From a virus (taxonomy: Duplodnaviria; Heunggongvirae; Uroviricota; Caudoviricetes): a DNA stretch of 64,000 nucleotides. Made by a program: the position numbers. Positions 9,001 to 12,000 of this stretch are shown here, one piece after another. Within the stretch, counting starts at the first letter, position 1. Every line of letters begins with the position of its first letter. Where the stretch lies: IMG/VR virus record IMGVR_UViG_2718218396_000003. One strand, given 5' to 3'.

Positions 9001-12000
9001 CATTGGCTGGCGATAACTTTCCCCACAACGGAACAACTCTCATTGCATGGGATCATTGGATATTGCGGGTTTAGTGGTTGTAGAAACACCTGACCGCTAT
9101 CCCTGATCAGTTTCTTGAAGGTAAATTCATCACCACCAAGTCTGGCTATGCAGAAATCGCCGGGCTCAACAGCTTGCTCAGGGTCAACCAGAATTAACAT
9201 CCCGTCAGGAAAACTAGGTTTGGAACCTGTTGGTGCGGTCATTGAGTTACCTTCAACCTCAAGCCAGAATGCAGAGTCACTGGCTTTTTTGGTTGTGCTT
9301 ACCAATCTCTCCGCATCACCTTTGGTAAAGGTTCTGAGTTCTGGAGAGAACATCCCAGCCTGAACATGAGAAAAAACAGGGTACTCATATTGTTTTTTAA
9401 CTGGGGCCGATGAGTATTCGCCAACAGGTGAAAATGTCCCGTCGTGGTTGAATGATATGTTATCAATACCAAGGTATTTAAACACCACACCAATATCACT
9501 AAGAGATGGATGACGAGATCCGCGCAACCAGTGTCCAATTCCACCCTGCGTCATACCTAGCTCTTCGGCTAACTTCTCTTGAGTTATGCCGAGCTCTTTC
9601 ATTCTGGATCTAGCCAGTTCATACCATTTCATTTTCATGTCCTTATTATTACGCTCTGTACTGGAACCATCCATGCACAATGTGTATTTTTACTTGTATT
9701 TGAGAAGTACATATTGTATTTTTTATTCGTGGTTACTATGGAGGGCATATGAGCAACCTACGAAAATATCGAGAGTCACTGAATATCTCTCAAACAACAC
9801 TTGCTAAGGCAGTTGGATGCACACAGGGAGCTATCGGACATTGGGAATCTGGTCGTCGCTTCCCAGACCTTAAAACATGCCGTGCTCTTGTTGCGTGTCT
9901 AAACAAGTTAGGCGCAAAAGTAAGTCTTGATGACGTGTTCCCGCCGGAGCACAAAGCCGCTTAATAAGCGGAGCCGCTCTTTGTAACAACGGACATTCGT
10001 CCTACGTCGCTGAAAAGCGAGTCCCAAGATATCTGACCAACTAAGGCCATATGCGTTTCCACGCATACCTTTCAACTAACTATTCACTATTGGAAATCTT
10101 AAGAAATGGAACGAACAAGTTACAGCAAACTATCACAGCGCGACGTTGATCGCGCAGAAACAGATTTACTCATCAACCTGTCAACGCTTACACAGCGCGG
10201 TCTGGCAAAGATGATTGGCTGTCATGAATCGAAGATAAGCAGAACGGACTGGCGGTTTATTGCTTCGGTCTTGTGTGCTTTCGGAATGGCATCAGACATC
10301 AGTCCGATTAGCAGGGCTTTTAAGTATGCGCTTGATGAAATCACAAAGAAAAAATCCCCGGCTGCCACCGAGGATTTTAAGCAAATTGATATGCAATTCT
10401 GAGGGAATTACTGGATCAATCCACAGGAGTAATTATGACAAAACGTCGTAAGAAATACCAGGAAAAAGAAGAGATTCGACACCCTGATTCACCTGAGGGA
10501 TGAACCGCCCCGGAAATCCTGGAGACTAAACTCCCTGAGAAAGAGGTAAACAGGATGACTAAAAATACTCGTTTTTCCCCCGAAGTCCGTCAGCGGGCGA
10601 TTCGTATGGTTCTGGAAAGTCAGGATGAATATGACTCACAGTGGGCGGCAATTTGTTCCATTGCCCCAAAGATTGGCTGTACGCCGGAGACTCTGCGTGT
10701 CTGGGTTCGCCAGCATGAGCGGGATACCGGGGGCGGTGATGGTGGGCTCACCAGCGCTGAACGTCAGCGTCTGAAAGAGCTGGAACGTGAAAATCGTGAA
10801 CTGCGCCGCAGTAACGATATCCTTCGCCAGGCTTCCGCTTATTTTGCGAAGGCGGAGTTCGACCGCCTCTGGAAAAAATGATGCCACTGCTGGATAAGCT
10901 GCGTGAGCAGTACGGGGTCGGACCGGTATGCAGCGAACTGCATATTGCCCCGTCAACGTATTACCATTGTCAGCAACAGCGACATCATCCGGATAAACGC
11001 AGTGCCCGTGCGCAGCACGACGACTGGCTGAAGAGAGAGATACAGCGCGTATACGATGAAAATCATCAGGTGTACGGTGTGCGTAAAGTCTGGCGTCAGT
11101 TGTTACGGGAAGGAATCAGGGTGGCCAGATGTACAGTGGCACGTCTCATGGCGGTTATGGGACTTGCCGGTGTTCTCCGGGGTAAAAAGGTCCGTACGAC
11201 CATCAGCCGGAAAGCCGTTGCCGCAGGCGACCGCGTAAACCGTCAGTTCGTGGCAGAACGACCTGACCAGCTGTGGGTGGCTGATTTTACTTACGTCAGC
11301 ACATGGCAGGGCTTCGTCTATGTGGCGTTTATCATTGATGTGTTTGCCGGATACATCGTGGGGTGGCGGGTCTCATCGTCTATGGAAACGACATTCGTGC
11401 TGGATGCGCTGGAGCAGGCGTTGTGGGCCCGTCGTCCGTCTGGCACCATCCATCACAGCGATAAAGGCTCTCAGTATGTGTCACTGGCCTATACGGAGCG
11501 ACTAAAAGAAGCCGGATTACTGGCATCAACAGGGAGTACAGGCGACTCGTATGACAACGCGATGGCTGAGAGCATCAATGGTCTTTACAAAGCGGAGGTA
11601 ATACACCGTAAGAGCTGGAAAAACCGTGCAGAAGTGGAACTGGCCACACTAACGTGGGTGGACTGGTATAACAATCGACGATTGCTGGGAAGGCTGGGCC
11701 ATACTCCTCCGGCAGAAGCAGAAAAAGCTTATTATGCTTCCATCGGAAACGATGATCTGGCAGCCTGAGTTCACAGATAAAACACTCTCCAGGAAACCCG
11801 GGGCGGTTCAGGATTAGTGGTAGCCGCAGCAAATAACAGGGCGTTCGCAGAGCGCCTTGTTGGTGTTTACAGACTAGCCAAAGCAGGAGTGAAACATGGG
11901 CGTCGTTAAGTTAGCTGATTACAGGCCTCAACTGGAGGTCGTGGAGCATCGCGTGGCAGATACCGAAGATGGTTTCATGCGCGTTGCTAACGAGATTACC

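Follow-up and report, generated by a model that had tools for sequence, protein, structure and literature searches.

What has an IS629 element done to the phage in which it separates cII from the replication gene O? The question arises in a 64,000-nucleotide stretch of DNA (hereafter the window; IMG/VR virus record IMGVR_UViG_2718218396_000003, Caudoviricetes), which matches the Shiga toxin 2c (Stx2c) prophage of Escherichia coli O157 strain 7784 (cattle faeces, UK; NZ_CP018247.1). The original prediction was that this insertion sequence (IS) lies in an intergenic region, truncates a small open reading frame (ORF) and could attenuate transcription of O and the helicase gene from the pR promoter. 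We find that the event was, very probably, one ordinary IS629 transposition that struck codons 22/23 of a conserved phage gene of 53 codons, in a prophage that was already replication-defective.

The element, referred to below as copy 1, and its immediate borders comprise the following features:

10498-10500, no strand: left target site duplication GGA, defined by comparison with empty-site alleles
10501-11810, plus strand: IS629 copy 1, IS3 family (RefSeq name 'IS3-like element IS1203 family', IS1203 being a close relative), with left inverted repeat 10501-10525 and right inverted repeat 11786-11810
10555-10881, plus strand: IS629 orfA, with the Pfam domain HTH_Tnp_1
10836-10952, plus strand: ALIL pseudoknot, the -1 programmed frameshift signal of orfA/orfB (Rfam RF01497, 121.5 bits, E 2.5e-32)
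10878-11768, plus strand: IS629 orfB, with the Pfam domain HTH_21 and the rve DDE integrase core
11811-11813, no strand: right target site duplication GGA, defined by the same comparison

Reading and computation agree that copy 1 is complete and exactly 1310 bp long. Its terminal inverted repeats of 25 bp are imperfect (22/25 matching) and begin TGAACCGCCCCGG. The length of ∼1.3 kb, the TG...CA inverted repeats, the 3-bp duplication and the orfA/orfB frameshift all place it in the IS3 family, and it is 99.8-100% identical to the copies annotated as IS629 in Stx phage records. RefSeq already annotates copy 1 and labels the transposase 'programmed frameshift'; the ALIL pseudoknot was the sole match in our Rfam scan. 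Further IS629 copies, 99.92% identical, are present in the window at 20059-21368 (minus strand) and 42367-43676 (plus strand).

When the IS and one GGA were removed in silico, the resulting sequence showed 0 mismatches over 1,705 nt to Stx2 phage 1717 and 0 mismatches over 7,488 nt to strain NZRM4169. Since the IS-removed sequence equals these IS-free alleles, which hold a single GGA, the flanking trinucleotides are a true 3-bp target duplication; the predicted borders and duplication are thereby confirmed by the inverted repeats and by the empty-site alleles alike. Duplications of 3-4 bp are typical of IS629 (PMC3271280). The exact left junction was found in six of 5,426 complete E. coli genomes (7784, Z1835, Z1836, NZRM3614, AC-3 and AC-5), and an empty site in 247 genomes of the same set. 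The junction is not an assembly artefact, because it is identical in these six independently assembled genomes; it was not found in metagenome or viral contig collections. The insertion can thus serve as a lineage marker of a small O157 Stx2c sublineage.

The insertion site proved not to be intergenic. It lies inside a conserved gene of the HK97 gp53 family (phrog_1331), which the IS has split in two:

10435-10503, plus strand: 5′ fragment of the gp53-family gene, ending after 22 codons in a TGA stop that the IS end supplies
11814-11909, plus strand: 3′ fragment of the gp53-family gene, left orphaned, with 31 codons and a stop and containing the conserved helical core, as read from the sequence

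The small ORF starts with an ATG at 10435, preceded by AGGAG, and at present reads MTKRRKKYQEKEEIRHPDSPEG. As predicted, it runs into the IS, and it is cut to 22 codons by a TGA that the first three IS bases (10501-10503) create. Restored, it has 53 codons plus a stop, ends at 11909 and overlaps the O start (11896) by 14 nt, which bears out the 54 codons and the overlap that had been expected for an IS-free allele. The restored ORF matches the phrog_1331 profile over positions 1-53 of 53 (E 1.4e-37), of which the present copy retains residues 1-22 only; the database label of this family is 'function unknown'. It is 100% identical to HK97 gp53 and like it in position and in its overlap with the initiator gene. 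HK97 and phage 1717 annotate this ORF as gp53 and gp23 respectively, and gene 42 of Sf6 belongs to the same family; the copy in the window differs in being truncated after codon 22.

Whether IS-free relatives conserve the small ORF had been suggested as a check, and the outcome was positive in 97 phage genomes and 17 loci of Enterobacterales. The gene is intact in 97 sequenced phage genomes, e.g. HK97, HK544, mEp213, ES18, epsilon34 and Stx2c phage 2851. The 17 Enterobacterales loci (from Edwardsiella, Trabulsiella, Yokenella, Enterobacter, Citrobacter, Chimaeribacter, Serratia, Rahnella and Brenneria) keep 52-55 codons, the ATG and, in most cases, a Shine-Dalgarno (SD)-like sequence, and their indels are exclusively in frame. 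The ratio of nonsynonymous to synonymous substitution rates (dN/dS; pairwise Nei-Gojobori) had a median of 0.155 and was < 0.34 in all 109 informative pairs, and variable codon positions were distributed accordingly (third 51/51, first 33, second 27). The overlap with the initiator start was present in 17/17 loci (14 nt; 17 nt in two) and is kept even though the upstream genes differ and the initiator N-termini are of two or more visibly different sequence types. Collectively, this argues that the disrupted ORF is a real gene under purifying selection.

It is hardly credible, by comparison, that the ORF is a chance frame in an intergenic spacer and that nothing functional was hit. Searches of Pfam, NCBIfam and PDB sequences found no relative of the small protein, and the ORF is annotated merely as hypothetical; yet a chance frame is at odds with the low dN/dS and the frame-preserving indels, with a conserved start codon, SD sequence and initiator overlap in every locus examined, and with the 97 phage genomes that carry the ORF intact. 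We rejected this reading on the indels, the dN/dS and the conserved overlap. The family is narrow, comprising 24 small representatives at 50% clustering in an exhaustive profile search, none of them annotated, and the literature that we searched contained nothing on HK97 gp53 function. AlphaFold modelled the protein with a disordered basic N-terminus and helices at residues 21-29 and 31-49 (mean predicted local distance difference test score, pLDDT, 67.7). Because the conserved gene is cut after codon 22, the insertion removes the helical core and breaks the overlap with O; it should thus knock out the small protein and uncouple its translation from that of O. At 11817, 4 nt past the duplication, an in-frame GTG opens a 30-codon ORF (11817-11909) that retains the conserved core and the O overlap. 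Translation from this GTG is doubtful, because the AGGA ahead of it sits just 3 nt upstream.

The small gene also contains an internal hairpin (11839-11857, plus strand; GGGCGUUC-GCA-GAGCGCCU, 7 pairs). Across 16 diverged sequences 99.1% of the cells of this hairpin were paired, two pairs showed compensatory (GC/CG) changes, and the covariation score was reached by 0/500 shuffles. One possible, though doubtful, role of the 53-codon gene is that of a translationally coupled leader that would set the amount of initiator in HK97/P22-type modules, possibly via the hairpin or via masking of the O ribosome-binding site (RBS). If so, the IS-bearing strains would be natural knock-outs. Either way, a widespread and uncharacterised small gene coupled to phage replication initiators is a useful by-product of the analysis.

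In other prophages the same slot is filled by an unrelated 48-amino-acid DUF2740 protein (locus L028, 1635-1781), which we take to be possibly of the P22 orf48 type. Like the small gene, this ORF shares the upstream block and the first three codons and overlaps the initiator start, here by 8 nt; unlike it, its sequence is unrelated past codon 3. Since DUF2740 shares both slot and overlap, a leader ORF ahead of the initiator may be a general feature. Two contigs labelled as a 'Bacillota bacterium' metagenome-assembled genome and as 'Chryseobacterium sp.' (L008 and L011) carry enterobacterial lambdoid phage sequence, with small genes 100% and 83% identical respectively; their host labels are likely to reflect contamination or mis-binning.

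Downstream of the split gene lie the two replication genes whose expression the IS had been proposed to attenuate:

11896-12717, plus strand: replication initiator O, intact (Pfam Phage_rep_O; HK97 gp54 / P22 gp18 type)
12714-14089, plus strand: DnaB-type replicative helicase pseudogene with a 1-bp deletion, annotated as a pseudogene in RefSeq

The helicase lesion is the loss of a C after 13162, at a non-homopolymer position between the N- and C-terminal domains. This exact allele is present in only four complete genomes, 7784, Z1835, Z1836 and NZRM4169. Strain NZRM4169 carries the same frameshift, has none of the three IS629 copies and retains an intact 53-codon gene. Because it is otherwise identical over 7,488 bp, the frameshift appears to have come first and the IS second, and the prophage had therefore probably lost replication before the IS arrived. 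Published work likewise describes Stx2c prophages as having lost functions in replication, lysis and repair (PMC6776261). In the O157:H7 Stx2c sublineage we thus envisage a helicase frameshift, followed by transposition of IS629 into the gp53-family gene with duplication of GGA. With the helicase of the same prophage already frameshifted, the insertion would be one decay step of a replication-defective element.

Whether copy 1 reduces transcription of O and the helicase gene was judged from the sequence between pR and O and from two features that lie upstream of the IS or at a distance from it:

9975-10029, plus strand: nutR-like site, with a boxA-like sequence CGCTCTTTG at 9975-9983 and a boxB-like hairpin TCGCT-GAAA-AGCGA at 10016-10029, identified by eye and by analogy with lambda
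6958-7299, minus strand: N antiterminator, intact, 114 amino acids, 100% identical to the N of phage 1717 (tblastn)

Taken further, the original prediction would make the IS a polar block, one that strongly reduces O and helicase transcription from pR and so cripples prophage replication. The insertion adds 1.3 kb between pR and O, and in lambda transcription from pR activates the origin as well. Moreover, orfB is translated mostly after the -1 frameshift at the ALIL signal, which may leave a ribosome-poor stretch open to Rho; a weak terminator-like hairpin is present at 11268-11283; and the small ORF is no longer coupled to O. Nevertheless, we regard such a block as unlikely. Copy 1 is co-oriented with pR, and the hairpin at 11268-11283 (6-bp stem, three GC pairs) is the sole plus-strand terminator-like site in the element. 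Scanned in 78-nt windows, the IS shows no strongly C-rich, G-poor tract (C exceeds G by 0.13 at most), and no strong intrinsic terminator is predicted in it. The N gene is intact and encodes an arginine-rich motif. By analogy with lambda, transcripts at the IS should resist termination because of N and the nutR-like site upstream, and pR transcription can probably still reach O. The O coding sequence is unchanged and has its own SD sequence AGGAG (11882-11886), placed 6 nt upstream of the O ATG. Taken together, this points to a limited polar effect, and the predicted attenuation of O and helicase expression is modest. It is also largely beside the point, because the helicase was probably already dead: the frameshift is, on parsimony, older than the IS, and replication was most likely lost before. 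Given the co-orientation, the lack of a strong predicted terminator and the presence of N and a nutR-like site, the added effect of the IS on replication would be near nil.

The opposite effect, an insertion that raises O expression because it separates an SD-masking 5′ arm from the O RBS or supplies an outward promoter, is very improbable. The fold predicted for the intact mRNA joins 10478-10499 to 11878-11904, a segment containing the O SD sequence and ATG, in a helix that the IS splits; the intact mRNA also folds better than shuffled sequences (z -2.7). Covariation of the long-range helix, however, was not above that of shuffles, 103/500 of which reached it, and its 79.7% pairing is explicable by the conserved coding sequence. 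Nor did we find a promoter-like site directed outward at the right end of the IS, in a strict scan that did not flag pR either.

Several points weigh against the reading that we prefer, namely a decay-stage transposition with little further effect on replication. The order of events is a parsimony argument: precise excision of IS629 in NZRM4169 is possible in principle, and O157 is known to have an IS-excision enhancer that acts on IS629. This alternative is the less likely one, and it would need two or more clean excisions. Some function might remain in the split helicase. The size of the polar effect was judged from the sequence; orfB may be poorly translated, and Rho-dependent termination may occur if modification by N is inefficient.

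The clearest demonstrable consequence of copy 1 is a deletion, which involves a second IS629 in the same orientation:

42367-43676, plus strand: IS629 copy 3, within the tape-measure gene and forming a direct repeat with copy 1, identified by sequence comparison

Strain NZRM3614 carries a single IS629 whose left flank is that of copy 1 and whose right flank is that of copy 3; this IS has the copy-3 single-nucleotide polymorphism at IS position 1297, and the 3 kb past it showed 0 mismatches to the window downstream of 43676. The arrangement is the product of homologous recombination between the co-oriented copies 1 and 3, with 31,866 bp deleted. Lost with this stretch are O, the helicase gene, Q and stx2c, the genes for lysis and for the head, and the 5′ portion of the tape-measure gene. 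For AC-3 and AC-5 the search table shows matches that stop at the right end of the IS, with a tape-measure gene lying under it, so that both strains apparently carry the same deletion. Recombination between copy 1 and the co-oriented tape-measure copy thus accounts for a 32-kb loss of the toxin genes in other strains. The two copies are a substrate that can turn an stx2c-positive strain into one without stx2c at this locus, and the deletion bears on the typing and origin of toxin-negative O157 strains. Given its recorded origin, Austria, NZRM3614 may be identical with NCTC 12900, the toxin-negative reference strain.

IS629-driven decay and deletion of Stx prophages is a well-known process, of which the present insertion is one instance. 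IS629 copies cluster in prophages and are a driver of variation and deletion in Stx phages (PMC3271280, PMC4587872, PMC5359411). Insertions in O157 Stx prophages resemble the present one in the 1310-bp element, the 3-bp duplication, the orfA/orfB -1 frameshift, the prophage site and the disruption of a gene, and recombination between IS copies leads to deletion there as it does here (PMC3271280, PMC4587872, PMC5359411). Strain 7784 was among the genomes of Shaaban et al. (2016), who found that IS elements make up most Stx2c prophage variation and did not discuss the cII-O insertion site (PMC5359411). In the literature searchable here we found no paper discussing IS629 inside the gp53-family gene between cII and O of an Stx2c prophage. 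As a discovery the insertion carries little weight, since IS629 insertions and deletions in Stx prophages are well documented.

We also considered whether local sequence or structure makes the site a preferred IS629 target, which we hold to be distinctly unlikely. A second, independent IS629 insertion occurs 1 nt downstream, in the same orientation, in a prophage whose immunity region is different (draft genome GCA_003982045.1; L030, 3060-3075). Two IS629-like elements, 95-96% identical, are found in other strains at a lambda-type O gene, one 2 nt upstream of the O ATG with a TTA duplication (L005, 2636-3945) and the other in the iteron region of O with a GAC duplication (L004, 3109-4418). Against a preference, the site itself accounts for two events only, no more junctions were seen in metagenome or viral contigs, and the published analysis found no sequence-specific IS629 target (PMC3271280). 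The apparent bias towards one orientation is an artefact, because the search joins pieces on one strand. Some 9 genomes with an IS in the 800 bp after cII were expected by chance, and 14 were observed; the expectation is rough arithmetic from genome counts, the density of IS629-like copies and prophage enrichment (PMC5359411). With the observed count close to this rough expectation, we rejected a cII-O insertion hot spot. The insertion numbers are too small for such a claim, and the idea of a local preference is weakly alive.

Three further features of the pR operon and its surroundings lie to the left of the insertion:

9749-9964, plus strand: cro-type repressor gene, the first gene of the pR operon (Pfam HTH_3; annotated as cro in phage 1717)
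10106-10402, plus strand: cII (Phage_CII, E 6e-32)
10345-10437, minus strand: putative homologue of lambda po/oop, from a terminator scan and lambda/HK97 alignment

The lambda cII-oop-po-O junction appears to have a homologous counterpart here, in which the SD plus ATG block, the po -10 and the terminator of the antisense oop RNA can be aligned. On the minus strand, the terminator scan and the alignment agree on an oop-like terminator hairpin (10378-10351) followed by a T run. The po -10 CATAAT is the complement of 10432-10437, that is, of the start region of the small ORF. The lambda oop coordinates used for this alignment are those that we take to be correct; the lambda record carries no oop annotation, and Rfam has no family for oop. 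The IS lies ∼40 bp or more beyond the presumed po -35, and oop is therefore probably unaffected by it. In lambda the ATG of this block opens O itself, whereas here the same ATG opens the 53-codon leader gene, which in turn overlaps O. That mosaic joints fall at the small-ORF ATG is explained by the SD plus ATG being the conserved block that starts O in lambda. At the N locus RefSeq annotates a shorter 'hypothetical protein' (6955-7227) and an overlapping ORF.

The 7784 genome has IS629 at the same three places as the window: one copy follows cII, one lies within the Ser/Thr phosphatase gene that precedes Q, and one is inside the tape-measure gene. The second of these, copy 2 (20059-21368, minus strand), interrupts the phosphatase gene directly upstream of the antiterminator Q and opposes transcription from pR. 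Of the genomes that we inspected, 7784 alone carries it. Its influence on Q, and through Q on stx2c expression, could be more direct than that of copy 1. Elsewhere in the prophage the lambda-type exonuclease gene is frameshifted (3913-4586, minus strand), and RefSeq flags the portal gene as frameshifted (L006, 34158-36904; L007, 11945-14529; locus coordinates). The bet gene has an internal stop in Z1835 and none in 7784. The exonuclease, portal and bet lesions are further signs of prophage decay.

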